This document shows positions 10,205 to 32,000 of a DNA stretch of 32,000 nucleotides, piece by piece. The first letter of the stretch is position 1. The number at the start of each line of letters is the position of its first letter. The translations under genes and the position numbers were made by a program. The notes under the pieces were generated by a model, which was given only the letters and a program-made list of their open reading frames with translations, was not told where the DNA came from and did not search any database. This stretch comes from Sinorhizobium meliloti. Lineage in GTDB: Bacteria; Pseudomonadota; Alphaproteobacteria; Rhizobiales; Rhizobiaceae. The DNA is taken from the NCBI RefSeq assembly GCF_017876815.1, contig NZ_JAGIOS010000001.1, forward strand, positions 480,001-512,000. Direction: 5' to 3'.

Positions 10205-11905
10205 TTGCTTCGGACGGATCGTTTGCACTTCACCGCCAAAAGCCTCAAGCGGCGCTACGCCAGCTCCGGCACCGGCCTTCACCATCCGCTGCTCACCGGC
10301 TGGGCCGGACTCGCCTCCGCCGTCGTGCTCATGCCGATTCTTGCCATTGCGTGGCTAGCCGTTTCCGGCGGCACCGCAGACTGGCCGCATCTCATCCAAA
10401 ACGTGATCCCGCGTGCAACCGGCCGCACGCTTCTCCTGGTCCTGTTCACAGGCACCGCCACCGCCATGATCGGCATCGTCACCGCCTGGCTGGTGGCGAC
10501 CTATGAATTTCCATTACGCCGCTTCCTTTCGGCGGCCCTGGTGCTGCCGCTTGCCATACCGGCCTATCTTTCGGCCTATGCCTTCGGGGAGTTGCTCACC
10601 TTCACCGGCCCTGTGCAGGGCTTGGTGCGGGCCCTCTTCGGATTTCAGACGAGCCGCGATTACTGGTTTCCCGACGTGCGTTCCCTCGGCGGCGCGGTGC
10701 TCGTTCTGAGCTCGGTGCTCTATCCCTATATCTATCTCGCCTGCCGTTCCATGTTCCTCATGCAGGGCCGCGCCGCCGCGGACGTGGCGCGGACGCTCGG
10801 GGCCGGACCGCTGAAGGTCTTCTTCCGCGTCCAGCTTCCGATGGCGCGGCCGGCGATCATGATCGGCCTCACGCTCGTTGCCATGGAAACGCTGAACGAT
10901 ATCGGGGCGGTAGAATTTCTCGGCGTGCAGACCCTGACCTTCTCCATCTTCGATACCTGGCTCAACCGTGGCAGCCTCGCCGGCGCGGCGCAGATCGCCT
11001 GCATCATGCTGGTTTTCGTCATCGGCCTGATGATGGTCGAGCGGGCGGCACGCCGCAGACAGCGCTTTGCGAGCCAGAAGACCACGGCCGCAGTTCACGA
11101 CGCCGCGAGGCTGAAACTTTCCGGCTGGAAGAAATGGGCCGCGACGGCCGCCTGCCTTCTGCCGATACTGTCGGGCTTTGCCGTTCCCTTCCTTGTTCTG
11201 GGCGACTATGCCCTGAAACGCCTCGACCAGTTCCTGGCGCCGCGCCTCCTGAGCGCGCTGCTGCACAGCATCCTGGTGTCCGGTCTGACGGCGTTTGCGA
11301 CCGTGCTCCTGGGTTTCGTGCTCGCCTATGCCGCGCGCACCGGGCGTTCGCGCATCACCGATATCGCCGGGCGGCTCGCCTCCTTCGGCTATGGTGTGCC
11401 CGGTACCGTACTGGCGATCGGGGTGCTCTTTCCGCTCGCGGCCCTCGACAACACCATCGACGCCGAGATGCGGGGGCTTTTCGGGATTTCCACCGGCCTG
11501 CTCATGAGCGGCACCGGCTTTGCCATCATCTATGCCTGCACGGTCCGCTTCCTGACCATGGCGGAAGGGACGCTCGAGGCCGGCTTCCAGAAACTGTCGC
11601 CGCATCTCGATATGGCCGCACGAGCGCTCGGGCGCACGAGCGGCCAGACGCTGCGCGCGGTGCTCCTGCCGATGATGCGGCCCGCAGTGCTGACGGCCGC
11701 GCTCCTCGTCTTCATAGAAACGATGAAGGAGCTTTCCGCGACCATCATGCTGCGCCCGTTCAATTTCAATACGCTGGCGACGCTCGTCTACGAGGATGCC
11801 TCGCGGGCGAAGGTGGAAGACGCCTCCGTTGCGGCGATGATCATCGTCCTCGCCGGGATGGTCCCCGTCATCCTGGTGTCCCGGTCGCTCGAACGCCGGT
11901 CATAG
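10205..11905 (+). CDS. Fe(III)/thiamine-type ABC transporter permease with two fused transmembrane domains (FbpB-like)
   Basis: 566 aa and very hydrophobic, with two EAA-loop-like regions (ARTLGAGPLKVFFRVQLPMARPAI and ARALGRTSGQTLRAVLLPMMRPAV). The first codon in the track is TTG, so the true start is uncertain. No cognate ATPase or binding-protein gene is adjacent. Confidence 0.8.
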   Translation: MLRTDRLHFTAKSLKRRYASSGTGLHHPLLTGWAGLASAVVLMPILAIAWLAVSGGTADWPHLIQNVIPRATGRTLLLVLFTGTATAMIGIVTAWLVATYEFPLRRFLSAALVLPLAIPAYLSAYAFGELLTFTGPVQGLVRALFGFQTSRDYWFPDVRSLGGAVLVLSSVLYPYIYLACRSMFLMQGRAAADVARTLGAGPLKVFFRVQLPMARPAIMIGLTLVAMETLNDIGAVEFLGVQTLTFSIFDTWLNRGSLAGAAQIACIMLVFVIGLMMVERAARRRQRFASQKTTAAVHDAARLKLSGWKKWAATAACLLPILSGFAVPFLVLGDYALKRLDQFLAPRLLSALLHSILVSGLTAFATVLLGFVLAYAARTGRSRITDIAGRLASFGYGVPGTVLAIGVLFPLAALDNTIDAEMRGLFGISTGLLMSGTGFAIIYACTVRFLTMAEGTLEAGFQKLSPHLDMAARALGRTSGQTLRAVLLPMMRPAVLTAALLVFIETMKELSATIMLRPFNFNTLATLVYEDASRAKVEDASVAAMIIVLAGMVPVILVSRSLERRS

Positions 11906-23834: not shown

Positions 23835-24074
23835 ATGACTGTACAGACACGCGTCAAGGAACGGGCCGAGGAACAATCGTCGGCCATGACACCGGAACAG
23901 CAGGCGGCGATCCGCATGGTCGCCAACGACCTGCACCGCCTCAACCAGGCGGTCATGAAGGCCGTCGATGCGGGGGTTTCCGTAGAACTGGTCCGTTCGG
24001 CGCGCCATCACGGCGGCGACGGCAACTGGGGCGACCTGCTGATCCCCGTCATCGTCACGCAAGGCAGGCACTGA
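23835..24074 (+). CDS. Small hypothetical protein (79 aa)
   Basis: ATG preceded by AAAGGAGCACTCCG. Sequence MTVQTRVKERAEEQSSAMTPEQQAAIRMVANDLHRLNQAVMKAVDAGVSVELVRSARHHGGDGNWGDLLIPVIVTQGRH. I recognise no family. It is the last gene before the accessory region. Confidence 0.5.
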   Translation: MTVQTRVKERAEEQSSAMTPEQQAAIRMVANDLHRLNQAVMKAVDAGVSVELVRSARHHGGDGNWGDLLIPVIVTQGRH

Positions 24075-24238
24075 TTGTTGTCGTGCAGCGCGACGTCGCC
24101 GAGGCCGGCGATCGAAAGATCGCCGCCGAGAATCCCCGTTTGACGCCGTTGCGTCGAGAGAAGATGGCCCGCGCCGTCGTAGCAGGCGGTCTTTTCAAAG
24201 CAGCATTGAAGACGGAGTGAGTTCGCTTCACTACGGCG

Positions 24239-24856
24239 CTATGTAGGAGCCCGTTCCGAGGTCTTTTCCGATCCGGCCCAGCCGACCAGACCGACGCTGG
24301 ACCTGGCAGCGGGGATATACCGGTAAAGCGTCGCTGGCGAGACACCAAGGCGGCGGGCCACGTCCTCTACGTTGATCTCCCGATCAGCGAGGAGTACCTT
24401 CGCGGCCTCCAGATCGGATGCCTTCAACTTCGGCGGCCGGCCACCCTTGCGGCCGCGTGAGCGGGCCGCATTGAGGCCGGCGCGGGTACGCTCGCGGATC
24501 ACGCCACGCTCGAACTCCGCAAGCGCCCCGAAGATCTGGACCACGAGCCCGCCGCCGGCCTTCGTCGTGTCGATCGCTTCGGTCAGCGACCGGAATCCGA
24601 TTCCGCGATCCTCCAAGGCTTCGACTGTCTCAATGAGCTGCTTGAGGGACCGGGCAAGCCGATCGAGCTTCCACACCACGAGCGTATCGCCCTCGCGCAT
24701 GTAGTCGAGTGCGGCGGCGAGCTGCGGCCGATCGCGGTTCGCCTTCGAGGCGGTCTCCTCGAAGATTCGGGCGCACTCAACCTTCTGCAGCTCATCGAGC
24801 TGCGCGGCGACTGTGTGATCTCGCGTCGAGACACGGGCATAACCTATCAACGCCAT
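24239..24856 (-). CDS. Serine recombinase (resolvase/invertase family)
   Basis: 205 aa. MALIGYARVSTRDHTVAAQLDEL (catalytic Ser in YARVST), GDTLVVWKLDRLARS, ALAEFERGVIRERTRAGL, and C-terminal HTH VARRLGVSPATLYRYI plus a ~20-aa tail. The ATG (24854-24856) overlaps the end of the vapC reading frame. Confidence 0.9.
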   Translation of the reverse strand: MALIGYARVSTRDHTVAAQLDELQKVECARIFEETASKANRDRPQLAAALDYMREGDTLVVWKLDRLARSLKQLIETVEALEDRGIGFRSLTEAIDTTKAGGGLVVQIFGALAEFERGVIRERTRAGLNAARSRGRKGGRPPKLKASDLEAAKVLLADREINVEDVARRLGVSPATLYRYIPAARSSVGLVGWAGSEKTSERAPT

Positions 24857-25241
24857 TTTTCGATATCCGTGTGTATGAAATCGTCACCCTTGAAGAGCAG
24901 GGGAGCCGAGAGGCTCTTGGCGAGGGCATAGGCGGCACAGTCAGCGAGGTTGAGTCGAGCTTTCGAGTGAATGCCCTTGCCGAATCGGCCGAAGGCTTCC
25001 GAGGCCTCGCGCGCCTGTTCCTCATTAAAGGGGGCAACCTCGATGCCGTTTACGCTTAGGAAGCGCCAGAAATCCTCCGCGCTCTCAGGGCCCCGCGTGC
25101 TCGCAGGATCATCGCGGTTTCATGTGCGTTGACCGCCGACATGACAAGCTGGTCGGCTGACGCCATAGCGTCAGCGAGCGGTAGGGCGTCGTCTTCTGCT
25201 TGGAAGATCGCGACAACGGCTGACGAATCTACGACCATCAT
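24847..25241 (-). pseudogene. vapC: PIN-domain toxin VapC, interrupted by a 1-nt frameshift
   Basis: Frame 1 (track ORF 25056..25241) reads MMVVDSSAVVAIFQAEDDALPLADAMASADQLVMSAVNAHETAMILRARG, then goes out of frame to a stop. My translation of the adjacent frame continues PESAEDFWRFLSVNGIEVAPFNEEQAREASEAFGRFGKGIHSKARLNLADCAAYALAKSLSAPLLFKGDDFIHTDIEKWR-stop (TGA 24847-24849). The total of 395 nt is not divisible by 3. The shift maps to the GGGCCCC run at 25088-25094. Confidence 0.8.
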
Positions 25242-25489
25242 AGGGCGTTCAAATCGTCAGCTATTTCCTGCGGGCTACGTGGGTCGAGGACCGGCCGAGC
25301 GGCGACCTTCTTACCGAAGGCGAGCATTTCGGCGGCCGTCATCCGGCGCTTCGCCGACAACTCGTCGGAGACGCCGAGCGCCTTGGCCTCGCGTTCGAGC
25401 GCGGCCCGGATCAGGTCTTCAGGTTTGCGGCCAACCCGGGCTGCAACCCTGCGCGCGAGCTGTTCAGTATCGTGGGTGAGCCGCAACAT
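25238..25489 (-). CDS. vapB: VapB-type antitoxin (Rv0623/PSK-transcription-factor-like)
   Basis: I start at the ATG at 25489: MLRLTHDTEQLARRVAARVGRKPEDLIRAALEREAKALGVSDELSAKRRMTAAEMLAFGKKVAARPVLDPRSPQEIADDLNAL (83 aa). The stop TGA (25238-25240) overlaps the vapC ATG (25239-25241) in an ATGA arrangement. Confidence 0.7.
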   Translation of the reverse strand: MLRLTHDTEQLARRVAARVGRKPEDLIRAALEREAKALGVSDELSAKRRMTAAEMLAFGKKVAARPVLDPRSPQEIADDLNAL

Positions 25490-25496
25490 TGGCTTC

Positions 25497-25561
25497 TCTC
25501 TCAAAAGTCGCGAATATGTAGCATGTTTTGAGAGATCGAAACAAGCAAGCGTTTTGAGAGA
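25497..25561. promoter_or_regulatory. Three copies of TTTTGAGAGA upstream of vapB (operator or res-like subsites)
   Basis: TCTCTCAAAA at 25497-25506 is inverted relative to TTTTGAGAGA at 25526-25535, with a 19-nt spacer. GTTTTGAGAGA recurs directly at 25551-25561. A possible TTGTTT-N18-TACATA promoter lies on the minus strand in the same stretch. Confidence 0.4.
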
Positions 25562-25929
25562 CAAAGGCTTGTGCTTCGATGCCCGTCGGGATGTCCGCGA
25601 AGTCGTTCAATGCTTCATGGAGGAAGCTCATCGCGGCGGTGTAGTCCTGCGGCCACGCCGACTGCGCTGTCGCGTAGTCGTAGAGCGGGAGGTTCGACAA
25701 GGCCGTTTCGGCGTTCAGAAGCGTGTTGCGATGTTCACTGGAGCCGCTGTCGAGTTGCCCGAACACGGTTTGGCCGTCGACATAGATCGGCCCCACGTAA
25801 CTCTGCTGCGTCTTCGCATCGTAGGAATAGATGTCCTGCACGGCGGCGAGGCACGACCTCGTCCTTCGCGGCGAGGCGGATGGAGCCGCCGCTGCCGAGC
25901 GCCGTGCCTACGAGGACCGCGCTGTCGCC
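25560..25929 (-). pseudogene. Orphan, chimeric, frameshifted cdiA fragment
   Basis: By hand alignment, 25560-25806 matches 27717-27963 (7 mismatches in about 247 nt). Also by hand, 25804-25929 matches 29650-29771 (about 7 mismatches plus a 1-nt insertion). The encoded ...AAKDEVV / QDIYSYDAKTQ-QSYVGPIYVDGQTVFGQLDSGSSEHRNTLLNAETALSNLPLYDYATAQSAWPQDYTAAMSFLHEALNDFADIPTGIEAQAFV then diverges into the vapB promoter. Confidence 0.85.
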
Positions 25930-26201
25930 AGCTTGACGATCAGCAGTTCACCCCTAACGTCTCAACATTAGCCATTGGCACGCGCAAGAGGTGCCCAGGT
26001 GGTCTCAGCTATTCGAGCCGGCACACTGAGTTAACCGGCGCCCGCACGCTGCTACGTTCATCGCGTAGCTGCTCGCGCCGTCTTCCGGAAAAGGTCGTTC
26101 TGGACAGAAACTTTAAGGTCACCGCAGCCCGCCCGCACTGATCCGTTTCGAGCCCAGAAACAGGGACACCGCCCAGCAGGAACGCACGGACGAGGTGAAC
26201 C

Positions 26202-26759: not shown

Positions 26760-29700
26760 TTACAATCCCGGTGCGGAAATTTGAAAGACAGGTATACCGT
26801 TCGGATAGCCTTGATCCCGCAGGGGGACATTCGGAATGAGCCTCAAACGTTCTGCGACTGGACCTGACGGCACAGCATCGCCACTCGAAATCTGCGGAAA
26901 GATCGACATTTGGGACGACGTGTTTGGCCCATTTCCAGTCTTAATCTCAATGATGCCACTGACCTGAGTTTCGCCGGGTCGACGATAAACAATGTCCGGC
27001 TTACATGAACCGGTTTTGCAGAGGCTCCCGAACGTAACGTCATTCTCAACGGTATAGCCTTGCGACGACAATTGTGCACTCACATCATTCACATATTCTT
27101 GGTGATGCTTGTATTTCCGCGTGATCGACACATTTGGATTGGTTGATGGGTTTGGAACCTGTGCTTTTCTCCCGCCAACTAGGGTGTAGTAGCGGCCACT
27201 GGTGTCCCGATAAACCTGCTGACCATCAAGGTCCGTACCTGCGACCGTGTACGATCCGCCTCTCGGGCCGGAAATCGTTCCGTCGGCATTGCGGGAATAT
27301 CCCGTGGGCAGTCCACCCTCTGGAGCCTCAACCGCCTGCCTTGCCTCAGCGACCGTATCGTACTGCTTGCCGTCCGGATCTTGTAGCACACGACGACCCG
27401 AGGACAAGGCGACGACGGTCATCCCTCTTGTCAAAAGATCGCCGAACAATGCCTCTTCCAAGGCAACCCCGGCGACCGGCCCCCATGTTCCGTTGAGGAC
27501 GGCGTTTTCTACCTCCTCGGGCGTAAGGCCCGTGCGTCCCGTCGTTCCCTCGGCAAAGCCGATGGCCGCCGCTGACCGTGACTCCGAGGGCAGCGCGGCA
27601 AGCAGCTTCTTTATCCCGTAAGCTGCTGCTATCGTCGGCTCTGCCGCACGGATGTTCGAGGCGCCATACGCCGCGAAGATCGACCGCGTCCGATCCGGCG
27701 AAGACGACAGAGCGGCGACAAAGGCTTGTGCTTCGATGCTCGTCGGAACGTCCGCGAAGTCGTTCAATGCTTCATGGAGGAAGCTCATCGCGGCGGTGTA
27801 GTCCTGCGGCCACGCCGACTGCGCTGTCGCGTAGTCGTAGAGCGCGAGGTTCGACAAGGCCGTTTCGGCATTCAGAAGCGTGTTGCGATATTCACTGGAG
27901 CCGCTGTCGAGTTGCCCGAACATGGTTTGGCCGTCGACATAGATCGGCCCCACGTAACTCTGCGCAATGAATGCTCGGGCTTCGTCTTTATAGTTGGCGC
28001 GTCGGCCGGGACCTCCATACACGCCGAAGGCGTCCGAGACGCCGTCGAGGGTTTCTGCTGCCAGGATGCCCAGCGCCTGCTCCCGTGTCAGGTCGCAGAC
28101 GTTCTTCATCCGGCACATCCAGGAAATGAATGCGCCCGCGTTTTCGTTGATCCATTCGACTTCCGTGCGGTGAAGCTGGCGGTTGTTGGTGAGCGCGGAT
28201 ACGGCAATCGCAGCGGCGAGGTTGACGTTATCAGCGTCACCGCCGGAAAGTAGGTAGCCGGCGACGGCGCCGATCAGCTCGGCGCGATCACGCTGCTCCT
28301 GATCGGACAGAGTCGTACCCTTGAGAGAGCCAGCAAAAAAGCTCTGCGCGACGGCGCCTGCCGCACCCGCTGCGCAATTGCCGCCCTGTGCCTCGGCTGC
28401 GGCGCAGCCGGCAAGCCCGTGCAGCAGCGCGCTCGGCAGGGTGCCTTCGCCGAGCCCGAGATCGCCGATGCCGCCCTGGACATCGGCGAGCGCCAGGTTG
28501 ACGACGGTGCTGAGCAGCGCCTGGGAGAAGCCGGACCCGAAATCGGTGCCGTAGACGAGCGACGTCAGGCCGGAACCGATGGCGCCGTCGAGCGCTCCGT
28601 CGAGAATGCCGCCGAGCGTCAGCTGGCCGTTGCCGAAGCCGCCGAGCAGGCTTTCGTTGAGGAGGCCCTCCGTATCGATGCCGAGGGCCGAGAGATTGAC
28701 GGCGTCCTTCAGCCCCGCGGTGGCACCGGAGAAGGCGGCGCCCTTGAGGATCTCGCCGATGTCGTAGTTGCCCGAGACGATGCCGTCGAGGCTCTCGACG
28801 ATGAAGGAGGAAGTGAAGGCTTCGGCGGCGGCCCAGCCGCTGAGACCCGGCAGGACCGTTCCGACGATGGCCGGCGCCACGAAGTTGGCAACCGCGACGG
28901 CGACGAGGGCCTTGAAGGCGGGCGAGAGGGCGACCTGCTTGTCGTAGAAGTATTCGTTGGCAAGGCCCGCCTCGATGAAGGCGAGCCCGGCGATGGCGAG
29001 GAGTTCCTCCGGATAGAGATCGCCCGGATTGGCCGGATCGACGCCGGCCTGGTTATAGAGGCTGAGGTTCGCCTGGCCGCCGATCGAGAAGTCGACCGCG
29101 CCGCCTGCCTCGAAGGAGGAGAGCTTGGCGGTCTCGCGGAAGCTTCTCTCGGTGATCGTCGTCATGGTGACGAGGCCGAGATTGTTGGAGAAGAAGGCCT
29201 TGCGCTCGCTGTCGATCGCCGCTTCGACCTTGAAGTCGCCGCCGGTATCGACCGAAAGATTGCCGCCGGCGGCAAGATGCGCCCCGACGAGCGTGGTATC
29301 GGCGCCGGAGACGAGGGTCAGATCGAGCGCTGCGAGCGCATCGGTGCCGGTGCTGAAGCGGCTCTCGGCGCTGGAGTTCGTGGTCGAGCCGAAGAGGCCG
29401 AAGAAATAGCTTTTCTTCGTCGTGCGGCTTTCCTGGAAAATGTCGGTATAGGCGCCGGCGTAGATGTCGCCTTCCGTCGCCGAGAGGCCGATGTCGCCGC
29501 CGGCCGAGACGAAGCGGGAGCCGGCGGTGACGAAATCGCCGGTCTCGGCGATGACGTCGACGTCGCCGGCCGCTGCGATCGAGACGCCCTCATTGGTGAC
29601 GCGGGCCTTGGAGACGGAGGTCGACTTCTTCTTGAAGAGGCTCTTCTTCTGCGTCTTCGCATCGTAGGAATAGATGTCCTGCGCCGCGGCGAGCACGACC

Positions 29701-32000
29701 TCGTCCTTCGCCGCGAGGCGGATGGAGCCGCCGCTGTCGAGCGCCGTGCCGACGAGGACCGCGCTGCCGCCGGCAAGCGCCGACAGGTCGCCGCCGGCGT
29801 TAAGCTTCGTCGCGGAGCTGGCGACGGTGGAGATGTCGAGGCTGGACCTGCGGCCGCTCCTTTGAAACGCGGTGGTGGACTCCACCGCCGACAGCACCAG
29901 GTCGCCGGCCGCCGCCAGGCTGAGGGCGCCCGCCGCATCGCCGGTGACGCCGGCAAGCGTCAGCGCGCCGCCACTGACGATCGCAAGGTCGCCGCCGGAT
30001 TGGAGGGTGGAGAGCTGTTGGTCGACGGTCTCGAAGGTGCCGTTGGCCCAGGTGCCGGCGAAGCTGCGTTCGAGCCCGGTCAAGGTCACGCCGGCGTTTC
30101 CGTAGATCGAAAGGTCGCCCGCGGAAACGATCGAGGTGCCGGCCGCGAGGAGTTCGCCGCCGGTCACCAGCGCAACGCTGCCGCCGCTGATCGTGGCGTT
30201 CTCGAAGGACGCGGCGTCGAGGGCGGAGAGTGTCAGGGCGCCGCTTTCGGCGATGAGTCTGCCACTATCGACCGAGACCGTGCCTGCGCTGACCGTCAGG
30301 CTGCGGCTTCCCGCGATTGTCCCGCTGCTGGTGAGCGAGCCGGAGGCGATCGCCACGTCCCTGCCCTGGATCAGGGCGCCGGTCGCGTCGAGCGAGAGCG
30401 GCACGGCCTTCGGATAGACGGTGCGCGAGCCCGAGCCGTCTGGCGCCGGCACCTGGACCGGCTTGTCGAGATAATCGAAAGCGGGGACGGGCACGCGCTC
30501 ACCCGCGCGCTTCAGGGCAGCGAGGATAGTCTCCCGACCGTTGTTGACGAGGTCGTCCCGGTAGGCGAGCCGCCCCTCGGACATCAGGTAATCAGAGGTG
30601 ACGAAATTGGCGTATTGCGTGAACTCCGGATCGGTCTCGGCAAGCGTGGTGAGGCCGGCGACGAGGAGCGCATCGACGGAAGCGGTGGGCGAGAGCGAGG
30701 GCCGAAGCGGCACGACCGGCAGCAACTTTTCGGAGAGCACCGCGGTATCGACGGGAATGACGGTCGGCGTGCCGGGAAGCGCAACGGACGCCGGTGCGGG
30801 CCTGTCCACCGCGACCGGCGCCAAAGGATCGACGACGACCGGCCCGTACCGGTTGACGGCAATCGGAGAAAGCGGATCGAACTTCGCAGGAGGGCCGGTA
30901 TCGACCTTCGTTTCTGATCCCAGATCGGTGCCTTCGACCTTGCGGACCTCGCTGCCGTTGCCGGCCACGGGCGCCGTATAGTCGTCTGTCCGGGTTTCCG
31001 TAAGCTCGAAGTTCTTGTCGCTGGCGGGCGGGACGCCGGCCATGTCCGGATCGCCTGCAGCCTGCCGCTCGGCGATATAGGCGTTGAGTTTGTCGAGCAC
31101 GTCCTTCGTGGAGAGCTCGGAGGAAGGCAGCGTGACGTTCTCGAGATTGCCGGAGATCGCAACCGTGCCGTTCGCCTCGATGCGGCCGCCGAAGGTGTCG
31201 TAGAACTCGACCTTGCCTTCGTGGCAGGTGAAGCAATCCGGGCGCTTATGCACCTCGACGAGGAACTGGCTGGCGCCGAGCGCCTGGTTCTTCACGTCGT
31301 CGGCGGTGATGACGATGTTTTCGGCCGCCGAAATATTGCCGTAGATGTTCTCGACCTTGCCGGCTTTGATGTCGATGCTGCCGCCGGCGACCAACTCGGC
31401 AAGCACGCCGTCATCCTGGAAGCGGTCCTGGTAGAGGATCTTGACGATGTCGTAGGCGGCGCCGGACCCGGCGGTCATCGCGTTCCACGGCGAGGTTGCA
31501 GCGGCCACCAGCCGGTTCGAATAGACCGTTGCGGTTTCACCCGTCGCGGGATCGGTACCGGTGCCTTCGACCTCGAGCGAGGTCGGTTTGAGGATTGCCT
31601 TGACGTCGTCCGTGACGGTGGTGCCGCCGGAGGCGAGCGTGTCCCAGAGCGCCGCATAGGCTGCGGCGTTTTGCGGCAGGATGTCGCCGTTTGAGGCGAA
31701 GGCGGTGTCGCTGACGAGCTCTTTGATCGCGGCGGCCGGATCGGGCGTTCCGGCGGCATTCGCCCTGGCGAGCATGTCCGGCCAGATGCCGGCGAAGGCG
31801 GCGGCGAGCGCCGTACCGCTCGGTGTCGTCACGCTCGGTTTGACGATCGAGCGGCTTGTGGCGGAGAGCAAGGAACCGCCACTCACCAGGTCGGCCCAGA
31901 GCGCGGCATAGGCACCGGCATGGGACGGCTTGATGTTGCCGTCGGCATCGAGATAGGCGGGATCGATCAGCTTGAGGATCTCTTCCGCCGGCTCGGTCGT
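26760..32000 (-). CDS. cdiA: CdiA-like two-partner-secretion exoprotein (filamentous haemagglutinin family) with a polymorphic C-terminal toxin; 5' end beyond the window
   Basis: The track lists 26760..31886 (1708 aa). My translation shows the frame stays open to position 32000 (...TTEPAEEILKLIDPAYLDADGNIKPSHAGAYAALWADL-VSGGSLL...). It contains FHA-type repeats (QSGGDLAIVSGGALTLAG, NAGGDLSALAGGSAVLVG, AAGGNLSVDTGGDFKVEA). These are followed by a DUF637-like hydrophobic Gly-rich block, the pretoxin stretch LHGLAGCAAAEAQGGNCAAGAAGAVAQ, and then AIAVSALTNN. Confidence 0.85.
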   Translation of the reverse strand, partial: TTEPAEEILKLIDPAYLDADGNIKPSHAGAYAALWADLVSGGSLLSATSRSIVKPSVTTPSGTALAAAFAGIWPDMLARANAAGTPDPAAAIKELVSDTAFASNGDILPQNAAAYAALWDTLASGGTTVTDDVKAILKPTSLEVEGTGTDPATGETATVYSNRLVAAATSPWNAMTAGSGAAYDIVKILYQDRFQDDGVLAELVAGGSIDIKAGKVENIYGNISAAENIVITADDVKNQALGASQFLVEVHKRPDCFTCHEGKVEFYDTFGGRIEANGTVAISGNLENVTLPSSELSTKDVLDKLNAYIAERQAAGDPDMAGVPPASDKNFELTETRTDDYTAPVAGNGSEVRKVEGTDLGSETKVDTGPPAKFDPLSPIAVNRYGPVVVDPLAPVAVDRPAPASVALPGTPTVIPVDTAVLSEKLLPVVPLRPSLSPTASVDALLVAGLTTLAETDPEFTQYANFVTSDYLMSEGRLAYRDDLVNNGRETILAALKRAGERVPVPAFDYLDKPVQVPAPDGSGSRTVYPKAVPLSLDATGALIQGRDVAIASGSLTSSGTIAGSRSLTVSAGTVSVDSGRLIAESGALTLSALDAASFENATISGGSVALVTGGELLAAGTSIVSAGDLSIYGNAGVTLTGLERSFAGTWANGTFETVDQQLSTLQSGGDLAIVSGGALTLAGVTGDAAGALSLAAAGDLVLSAVESTTAFQRSGRRSSLDISTVASSATKLNAGGDLSALAGGSAVLVGTALDSGGSIRLAAKDEVVLAAAQDIYSYDAKTQKKSLFKKKSTSVSKARVTNEGVSIAAAGDVDVIAETGDFVTAGSRFVSAGGDIGLSATEGDIYAGAYTDIFQESRTTKKSYFFGLFGSTTNSSAESRFSTGTDALAALDLTLVSGADTTLVGAHLAAGGNLSVDTGGDFKVEAAIDSERKAFFSNNLGLVTMTTITERSFRETAKLSSFEAGGAVDFSIGGQANLSLYNQAGVDPANPGDLYPEELLAIAGLAFIEAGLANEYFYDKQVALSPAFKALVAVAVANFVAPAIVGTVLPGLSGWAAAEAFTSSFIVESLDGIVSGNYDIGEILKGAAFSGATAGLKDAVNLSALGIDTEGLLNESLLGGFGNGQLTLGGILDGALDGAIGSGLTSLVYGTDFGSGFSQALLSTVVNLALADVQGGIGDLGLGEGTLPSALLHGLAGCAAAEAQGGNCAAGAAGAVAQSFFAGSLKGTTLSDQEQRDRAELIGAVAGYLLSGGDADNVNLAAAIAVSALTNNRQLHRTEVEWINENAGAFISWMCRMKNVCDLTREQALGILAAETLDGVSDAFGVYGGPGRRANYKDEARAFIAQSYVGPIYVDGQTMFGQLDSGSSEYRNTLLNAETALSNLALYDYATAQSAWPQDYTAAMSFLHEALNDFADVPTSIEAQAFVAALSSSPDRTRSIFAAYGASNIRAAEPTIAAAYGIKKLLAALPSESRSAAAIGFAEGTTGRTGLTPEEVENAVLNGTWGPVAGVALEEALFGDLLTRGMTVVALSSGRRVLQDPDGKQYDTVAEARQAVEAPEGGLPTGYSRNADGTISGPRGGSYTVAGTDLDGQQVYRDTSGRYYTLVGGRKAQVPNPSTNPNVSITRKYKHHQEYVNDVSAQLSSQGYTVENDVTFGSLCKTGSCKPDIVYRRPGETQVSGIIEIKTGNGPNTSSQMSIFPQISSGDAVPSGPVAERLRLIPNVPLRDQGYPNGIPVFQISAPGL
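26763..28181 (-). other. CdiA C-terminal (CT) region after the TNN motif: 473 aa, with a PD-(D/E)xK-like nuclease module in the last ~125 aa
   Basis: The TNN codons are 28182-28190. The toxin tip reads ITRKYKHHQEYVNDVSAQLSSQGYTVENDVTFGSLCKTGSCKPDIVYRRPGETQVSGIIEIKTGNGPNTSSQ. The D codon is 26994-26996, E is 26946-26948 and K is 26940-26942. This E...PD...ExK arrangement is the restriction-endonuclease-fold signature. Confidence 0.55.

Follow-up and report, generated by a model that had tools for sequence, protein, structure and literature searches.

A vapBC pair between a serine recombinase gene and its predicted res site: a probable stability cassette in decay on the Sinorhizobium meliloti chromosome

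We analysed a stretch of 32,000 nucleotides of the Sinorhizobium meliloti chromosome (contig C1, 480001-512000; hereafter the window), which carries on its minus strand a unit of about 1.33 kb (window 25562-24226) made up of short repeats, a vapB-vapC toxin-antitoxin pair and the gene of a small serine recombinase. We consider it probable (about 0.7) that this unit is a portable res-vapB-vapC-resolvase stability cassette undergoing decay, which survives in S. meliloti as a relic. The repeats, situated at the breakpoint of a truncated cdiA orphan of a contact-dependent inhibition (CDI) locus, are identified as the predicted sites of the recombinase itself, and the addiction pair is slotted between the resolvase gene and its res site. 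The association of a toxin-antitoxin pair with a resolvase and res is already known as a general kind; here, the pair has been captured in one operon. For S. meliloti, the cassette would thus be debris at the rearranged distal end of an orphan array and not a working recombination system of the CDI island.

The repeats upstream of vapB resemble the res array of related recombinases

An 11-nt word occurs in three copies upstream of vapB, at 25496-25506, 25525-25535 and 25551-25561. On the gene strand the region reads TCTCTCAAAAC, 15 nt, TCTCTCAAAAC, 18 nt, TTTTGAGAGA, 7 nt and the ATG, so that two direct half-sites (25561-25551 and 25535-25525) are followed by an inverted one (25506-25497), 17 nt ahead of the vapB ATG. 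An initial annotation of the window had placed these repeats exactly where homology to cdiA ends, and this holds: the outermost copy occupies 25551-25561 and the cdiA match ends at 25560. The word TCTCAAAA or its complement is present 82 times in the 7.3-Mb genome, and the array in the cassette is the only spot where copies lie less than 150 bp apart, which argues that the cluster did not arise by chance. No second cluster of half-sites was found anywhere in the 7.3 Mb.

Our comparison set was made up of the 80 recombinases nearest to that of the cassette (55-73% identity), whose loci all lack this vapBC; upstream counts were taken over 77 or 78 of those loci and the background search for palindromes covered 792 kb. 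In the 250 nt upstream of these recombinase genes, TCTCAAAA or its complement is the commonest 8-mer, found at fixed distances in 38 of 77 loci. In 33 of 78 loci, a palindrome, TCTCAAAAAC-N4-GTTTTTGAGA, is located at -175 to -115 relative to the recombinase ATG, and it has only 7 matches outside that position in the whole background; four of these seven are farther upstream, with other sequence intervening before the recombinase gene. The palindrome is 24 bp long, with a geometry equal to the 12-2-12 arrangement of the Mu gix site, and there is one per 12-kb locus, not an inverted pair. A spacer of about 45-60 bp separates it from three direct half-sites and one inverted half-site, which end 7-15 nt before the ATG (at least two half-site words were counted in the last 100 nt ahead of the ATG in 28 of 78 relatives). 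The same architecture of palindrome and array is found in three members that adjoin Tn3 transposase genes (loci L077, L100 and L104).

The three half-sites of the cassette match the proximal array of these relatives in both sequence and spacing. Since relatives without vapBC have the same half-sites immediately ahead of their recombinase genes, we assign the repeats to the recombinase and read them as its own predicted sites, part of a res-like arrangement in which a site I is followed by an accessory array over the probable promoter of the operon. Only the proximal, accessory part (25496-25561, minus strand) is left in the window, the distal site I being gone. We favour res over the sites of an invertase because there is a single palindrome per locus, because the Tn3-adjacent members share the layout and because the recombinase groups with resolvases in our tree. 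Moreover, the array precedes vapB at nearly the distance at which it precedes the recombinase gene in relatives (the inverted half-site is 17 nt from the vapB ATG, versus about 15 nt from the recombinase ATG), which indicates that vapBC entered precisely between res and the start of the recombinase gene. Ownership of the half-sites by the recombinase is also backed by their fate in other copies of the cassette. Where the recombinase open reading frame (ORF) is whole, they are perfect (window) or almost perfect (Sinorhizobium sp. K101), and they have decayed in Rhizobium sullae and in genome G303, where the recombinase has been lost and vapB kept.

Gene organization and a frameshift in vapC

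The description of the three genes as chained on the minus strand proved correct, all being co-oriented between 24239 and 25489. The first, vapB (25238-25489), encodes an Rv0623-like antitoxin of 83 amino acids (PSK_trans_fac, PF07704, E 1.4e-6), and its stop codon and the vapC start codon share the ATGA at 25241-25238, as had been reported. The PIN-domain toxin gene vapC (PF01850 by Pfam; 24847-25241) follows, and the recombinase ATG (24856-24854) does fall inside it, 10 nt ahead of the vapC end (TGA 24849-24847). A small PF07704 antitoxin gene overlapping a downstream PIN toxin gene is the layout of a type II VapBC system, for which toxicity and neutralisation are putative functions. The recombinase (24239-24856, 205 amino acids) has the expected domain order, with an N-terminal catalytic domain (PF00239, E 2e-41, residues 4-136) and then a C-terminal helix-turn-helix (HTH) domain (PF02796, HTH_7, E 3e-9, residues 139-183). 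A scan of the cassette for consensus terminators found nothing.

The claim that this is a tightly coupled operon cannot be kept for this strain, in which vapC is frameshifted. One base is gone from a run of five G at 25091-25094, and the PIN domain is spread over two frames (Pfam positions 1-55 and 64-118), the C-terminal part running in the second frame to the TGA at 24849-24847. The N-terminal product is 61 codons long and stops at 25056, about 200 nt ahead of the recombinase ATG, so translational coupling from vapC to the recombinase gene is broken here. By comparison, vapC is whole (131 amino acids) in S. meliloti strain Ak57 and on plasmid pK101b of strain K101, and it is also whole in G303. 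The frameshift is probably real rather than an artefact, since the 61-amino-acid product is on record from three NCBI contigs.

Other copies of the cassette and a recurrent capture slot

A copy of the cassette with 84% identity over window 25562-24226 was found on pK101b, a 772-kb plasmid, where it is set among unrelated pseudogene fragments without CDI genes or tnpA. Homology between the window and K101 ends 13 nt past the recombinase stop codon in both, which defines the right end of the cassette (24226-24238, minus strand), and the same 3′ tail is present in G303, a member of the Rhizobiaceae. The G303 copy has an intact vapBC (85-90% protein identity) and an internally deleted recombinase gene, and it lies between two convergent genes that are separated by only a 21-bp spacer in the sister genome G221. 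In R. sullae, a replicon listed as a plasmid carries a truncated copy with vapB and part of vapC. No further complete copies were detected among 400 sampled Rhizobiaceae genomes, and a search for recombinase copies in the genome of the window itself found no second cassette. S. meliloti, K101, G303 and R. sullae thus form a small natural series in which recombination decays in different ways while the toxin-antitoxin pair persists.

Two further repeats were observed next to the K101 copy. The last 23 bp of the cassette recur in inverted orientation 77 bp downstream (L010:10302-10324 and 10402-10424, 87% complementary); this could be a hairpin or what is left of a second copy in the opposite orientation. 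A solo 38-bp inverted repeat of Tn3 type (GGGGTCGG...CTCTAAA, L010:10473-10510) lies 140 bp past the cassette and faces away from it; it is identical at 36 of 37 positions to the inverted repeat C3:1459639-1459675 in the genome of the window, beside the C-terminal remnant of a tnpA.

Although none of the 80 relatives has this vapBC, the place that it occupies has been filled by other genes. For example, Maliponia aquimaris (L052:5190-5998) has a full res whose half-sites co-vary (TCCGAAAAC), then a ParD-like gene and then a ParE gene, the last of which ends at the recombinase start. Genes of the Fic/Doc family are found in the same slot at L066:4700-5995 and L053:5120-5995, as are small unnamed ORFs at L069:5160-5640 and L088:5738-5995. 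Judged from these arrangements, the gap between res and the recombinase start is a predicted recurrent capture slot, which has accepted parDE, Fic and vapBC genes.

Loss of the predicted crossover site and probable damage to the recombinase

K101 and R. sullae hold a palindrome (CTCTAAAAAACG AC CGTTTATGAGAG in K101) about 62 bp upstream of the point at which homology with the window starts, and the window is without it; the homology that these two copies share with each other begins within a few bases of the palindrome centre. We searched by pattern for a partner crossover palindrome and found none in the window or in the 7.3-Mb genome, and an approximate scan of the genome returned 5 weak matches, in line with chance. 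Two possible roles of site I at the cassette ends were considered and rejected. The left junction coincides with the outer edge of an accessory half-site and shows a 3-bp microhomology, and site I would be expected about 55 bp away, which does not fit an origin mediated by site I. Integration of a circle should have left a site I half-site at the right end, where no resemblance to a half-site is seen.

The residues R8, S10, Q19, R66 (Tn3 R68) and R69 (Tn3 R71) are all present in the recombinase. The full set needed for recombination (R8, S10, Q14, Q19, R68 and R71 in Tn3 numbering) is incomplete, since position 14 is a histidine where 87 of 88 relatives have glutamine. This His14 is found in all 11 full-length S. 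meliloti alleles that we read. In Tn3 resolvase, all six substitutions of Q14 that were tested abolished resolution and R71 mutants were recombination-dead, while no mutation of that study abolished binding to site I (PMC2794168). The K101 recombinase (L010:9707-10285) carries Arg69Cys at the invariant arginine equivalent to Tn3 R71; its res with the palindrome and its vapBC look intact. With respect to the K101 copy, the ratio of nonsynonymous to synonymous substitution rates (dN/dS) is 0.04 for vapB, 0.06 for vapC and 0.11 for the recombinase gene, indicating purifying selection between the lineages. Either the damaging changes in the recombinase are recent, or the protein has been retained because it binds DNA and represses the operon. 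Most likely, the S. meliloti recombinase no longer recombines anything, and at most it would still bind the remaining half-sites and repress the operon.

Phylogenetic position and genomic contexts of the recombinase

When compared with solved structures, the recombinase scored highest with Gin, at 160 bits, the full-length chains of gamma-delta and Tn3 resolvase reaching 75-83 bits, and phage invertases are about 50% identical to it. However, in a tree built with reference sequences by a quick search under LG+G4, Gin, Cin and the Fels-2 invertase make up a clade of their own (Shimodaira-Hasegawa-like approximate likelihood ratio test, SH-aLRT, 99), and the recombinase does not cluster with them; had it done so, this would have counted against the proposal of the initial annotation. 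A clade to which the phage enzymes do not belong (SH-aLRT 91) unites the recombinase with TniR, with the relatives that adjoin Tn3 transposase genes and with plasmid resolvases, that of pXcaw19 among them, and the tree places gamma-delta and Tn21 TnpR at a distance.

The closest named relatives (60-73% identity) are mostly encoded on plasmids of 16-36 kb, and the one on pXcaw19 adjoins parA and repA. A Tn3 transposase gene adjoins 5 of the 80 nearest relatives; the other 75 have none within 6 kb. Other close relatives have ArdC, DUF3987, insertion sequence (IS) elements, SIR2/HerA, AAA_13, HsdM and SMODS genes as neighbours, that is, contexts of mobile elements and defence. In many relatives such genes directly follow the recombinase gene, in some cases overlapping it: an AAA_13 ATPase gene (L041:6578-8866, L064:6542-8860, L012:6572-8857), the type I methylase gene HsdM (L051:6647-8182, L107:6608-8593) and a SMODS cyclase gene (L084:6622-7590). 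This suggests that res-resolvase units carry cargo on both sides.

A proposed history of the cassette and points against it

From the relatives, we propose that the ancestral unit was a small serine resolvase gene behind its own res, the latter comprising a palindromic site I, a spacer of about 45-60 bp and a half-site array overlapping the promoter. The enzyme would have resolved replicon dimers or cointegrates at res and repressed its own promoter. A vapBC addiction pair, as the anatomy of the locus indicates, would then have been captured at one precise point, between the array of res and the start codon of the recombinase gene, so that a single promoter embedded in res would drive antitoxin, toxin and recombinase as overlapping genes. 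The resulting unit could couple multimer resolution with post-segregational killing. In the S. meliloti copy, site I is gone, the recombinase carries Q14H and vapC is frameshifted in this strain, the relic being joined to a truncated cdiA orphan through a 3-bp microhomology and to a truncated IS. The vapBC pair may have persisted because toxin-antitoxin pairs are hard to lose.

Several observations weigh against this interpretation. Recombinase-free vapBC loci (on Shinella plasmids and in locus L120) likewise have the proximal inverted half-site, TTTGAGAGAG, ahead of vapB, and this half-site may have a double role, as a leader, a ribosome-binding sequence or a VapB operator. No promoter was found when the array was scanned for a consensus of the Escherichia coli type. 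Two features of the copies are not accounted for, namely that three independent contexts share an identical right end and that the cassette is cleanly inserted in G303, with neither inverted repeats nor an identifiable target duplication. His14 is not among the Q14 substitutions that were tried in Tn3 resolvase (PMC2794168). In S. meliloti, the main alleles of the recombinase gene have a full-length ORF and occur on several hundred contigs, chromosomes of about 4 Mb among them, and an ORF so widespread could still be useful. The vapC frameshift sits in a homopolymer and could be an assembly error. Finally, binding by the recombinase, the crossover role of the palindrome and the toxicity and neutralisation of VapBC are all predicted from sequence and context.

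Alternative readings

The first alternative, which the initial annotation preferred, is that the unit is a remnant of a Tn3-family transposon (res-toxin-antitoxin-tnpR-tnpA) that has lost tnpA and its inverted repeats; we regard this as unlikely, though it keeps an appreciable share of the probability. Toxin-antitoxin pairs next to res and tnpR are documented in the Tn3 family, including the colinear order toxin, antitoxin, tnpR, tnpA (PMC7157771), and transposase-less Tn3 derivatives with res and a resolvase gene do exist (TIME-RES, PMC4133298). Among the five relatives that adjoin a Tn3 transposase gene, L077, L100 and L104 share the res architecture; moreover, the cassette ends 13 nt past the recombinase stop, close to where tnpA starts in L077 and in Tn21, and K101 has a 38-bp inverted repeat of Tn3 type 140 bp past its cassette. 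That repeat, however, points away from the cassette, which places the K101 cassette outside the Tn3-type element. The window has no tnpA, Tn3-type inverted repeat or target duplication, as had been observed, pattern and PF01526 searches both being negative. A search for inverted, direct and Tn3-type inverted repeats flanking the cassette gave nothing beyond chance, and no inverted repeats of about 38 bp (GGGG...TAAG) with a 5-6-bp duplication flank it in the window or in K101. At the G303 junctions no inverted repeat is evident either, the flanks being too diverged to judge a duplication. The proposed search for an identical cassette beside tnpA turned up only an unrelated Tn3 element on another replicon (C3); it has the only full Tn3 transposase of the genome, and its resolvase is just 39% identical to the recombinase. 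In addition, 75 of the 80 nearest relatives lack a Tn3 transposase within 6 kb, and the closest named ones are on small plasmids, as on pXcaw19 beside parA and repA. The description of the unit as a Tn3-style module therefore stands for its layout, with a toxin-antitoxin pair built into res and the resolvase gene as in the Tn3 family, but nothing ties the cassette specifically to Tn3, and its source may have been a plasmid or a Tn3-type element.

Equally unlikely is the reading that the recombinase no longer recombines and has been kept as a DNA-binding repressor of the vapBC operon at the surviving half-sites. Two lineages carry different substitutions that should affect catalysis and not binding (Q14H in S. 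meliloti, Arg69Cys in K101), and yet the recombinase ORFs are whole with a dN/dS of 0.11; the half-sites of the window are perfect although site I is gone, and half-sites decay in the lineages without the recombinase. However, dN/dS averages over the whole divergence, and the inactivating changes may be recent and neutral. The S. meliloti alleles are about 99% alike, so intact recombinase ORFs may reflect mere youth. Substitutions are not concentrated in the catalytic domain (16 of 135 residues, versus 8 of 55 in the HTH part), the comparison rests on four lineages, and VapB-type antitoxins normally autoregulate by themselves. The two distinct catalysis-linked substitutions offer a testable case of a resolvase kept only as a repressor.

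It is doubtful that the res-cargo-resolvase cassette is self-mobile as a discrete piece of about 1.4 kb that needs no transposase or inverted repeats, leaves no target duplication and moves by means of its own serine recombinase or a helper. The window and K101 agree to the base on where the cassette ends on the right, and G303 keeps the tail. The homology between K101 and R. sullae starts a few bases from the centre of the site I palindrome, and in G303 the cassette sits cleanly between convergent genes where the sister genome has the 21-bp spacer. Against this, nothing resembling a site I half-site is seen at the right end.

Rather less probable is the reading of the repeats as a VapB (VapBC) operator unrelated to the recombinase. 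Antitoxins usually bind inverted repeats at their own promoter, and the array overlaps the likely promoter; the proximal copy is also found upstream of vapB in the recombinase-free loci of Shinella and L120. The same words, however, stand at fixed positions before recombinase genes in dozens of loci without vapBC, and where vapBC occurs without the recombinase, the two distal copies have decayed or are missing.

We find it very improbable that the cassette is an active, free-standing stabilisation and resolution unit for the CDI island, the other option put forward in the initial annotation, or for the chromosome. It is true that an intact recombinase ORF is common in S. meliloti and that par loci of the RK2 type stabilise their replicon with a resolvase and a toxin-antitoxin pair, but the crossover palindrome is absent from the window and the 7.3-Mb genome, the recombinase has Q14H, vapC is broken in this strain, and chromosome dimers are resolved by XerCD/dif. 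Least of all do we expect a Hin/Gin-type invertase that controls an invertible segment, for instance by switching the CDI orphan: despite the Gin match, the roughly 50% identity with phage invertases and half-sites that resemble gix/hix in geometry (12-2-12, AAAC/GTTT beside the core), the recombinase falls outside the invertase clade, relatives have a single palindrome with an accessory array and not two inverted crossover sites around a segment, and no partner site was found in the window or genome.

Flanks of the cassette and genomic setting

On the left, the cassette abuts a decayed orphan remnant of cdiA (25560-25932, minus strand), with which it has only the bases GTC in common (25560-25562), and these make up the 3-bp microhomology of the junction. 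The remnant consists of two joined cdiA pieces, matching 29645-29774 and 27717-27963, with a 1-base indel. The distal piece (25802-25932) is 93% identical to cdiA 29645-29774 and contains the indel. Since the pieces join through a 5-nt overlap (GCAGA), the orphan remnant itself appears to be a deletion product.

On the right, the 5′ fragment of an IS transposase gene (24129-24201, plus strand), encoding an N-terminal HTH of IS481/IS630 type, lies between the boundary of the conserved core (about 24091) and the end of the cassette, where it is cut off; a homologous full-length copy gave its identity as an IS. This 73-bp piece matches five other Sinorhizobium genomes with 74-86% identity, and at the one site that was checked for ORFs the match is the 5′ end of an IS481/IS630-type transposase gene; a Pfam search with the ORF at 24050-24220 gave no match. 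The idea that the cassette was inserted into the CDI orphan is thus borne out in that it abuts and truncates the cdiA remnant, but its far side is the IS fragment and not the rest of the orphan, so the insertion is not a simple one. The core that begins at about 24091 includes an SMc00767-family gene and aceA. The last core gene is a 79-amino-acid ORF (23835-24074, plus strand) that matches the NCBIfam SMc00767 family acetate metabolism repressor (E 2.5e-39).

The sister species G003 (L027, G003:C1:428000-441000) has a CDI locus adjacent to aceA with different orphan modules and without the cassette; the absence of the unit from this position in sister species agrees with the initial proposal. 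The cdiA locus of G003 has a different toxin tip, a 304-amino-acid immunity candidate and a separate orphan pair of C-terminal toxin and immunity genes. Since cdiA occupies the same aceA-adjacent place in this species, the CDI locus would predate the cassette, with turnover at its distal end.

Comparison with known systems

The parCBA-parDE locus of RK2/RP4 is a plasmid stability locus that combines multimer resolution by a resolvase with a toxin-antitoxin pair. As in our cassette, a resolvase, res and an addiction pair are assembled in one compact locus, and the nearest named relatives of the cassette recombinase are on small plasmids, such as pXcaw19, where the gene is beside parA and repA. 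In contrast, the RK2 operons are divergent, while in the cassette the toxin-antitoxin pair and the resolvase gene form one overlapping operon behind res; the S. meliloti copy is, moreover, chromosomal and incomplete. With Gin, Cin and Hin, the recombinase has in common about 50% identity, the domain order, the GDTLVVWKLDRL motif and the 12-2-12 geometry of the crossover site, but it differs in belonging to a separate clade, and its relatives have one palindrome with an accessory array where the invertases have two inverted sites around a segment.

TIME-RES is a transposase-less element derived from Tn3 that contains res and a resolvase gene (Szuplewska et al. 2014, PMC4133298). It is likewise a portable site-specific recombination module without a transposase of its own, but it has 38-bp Tn3-type inverted repeats and 5-6-bp duplications, neither of which is found at the cassette ends in the window or K101, and it carries no toxin-antitoxin pair. 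A precedent for the pair itself is found in Tn3-family transposons, which can have a type II toxin-antitoxin module next to res and tnpR (Lima-Mendez et al. 2020, mBio, PMC7157771). There, too, the module lies directly against the resolvase gene and res, where it can be transcribed from the res promoter, some of the toxins are of the PIN type, and TnPosp1 is colinear in its order of toxin, antitoxin, tnpR and tnpA. Unlike these transposons, the cassette lacks tnpA and terminal inverted repeats, its Rv0623-like antitoxin (PF07704) is outside the six families listed (PMC7157771), all three of its genes overlap, and most relatives of its recombinase are away from any Tn3 transposase. Since the same slot has also taken up parDE and Fic genes, the pattern of a toxin-antitoxin pair beside res extends to res-resolvase units without a nearby transposase.

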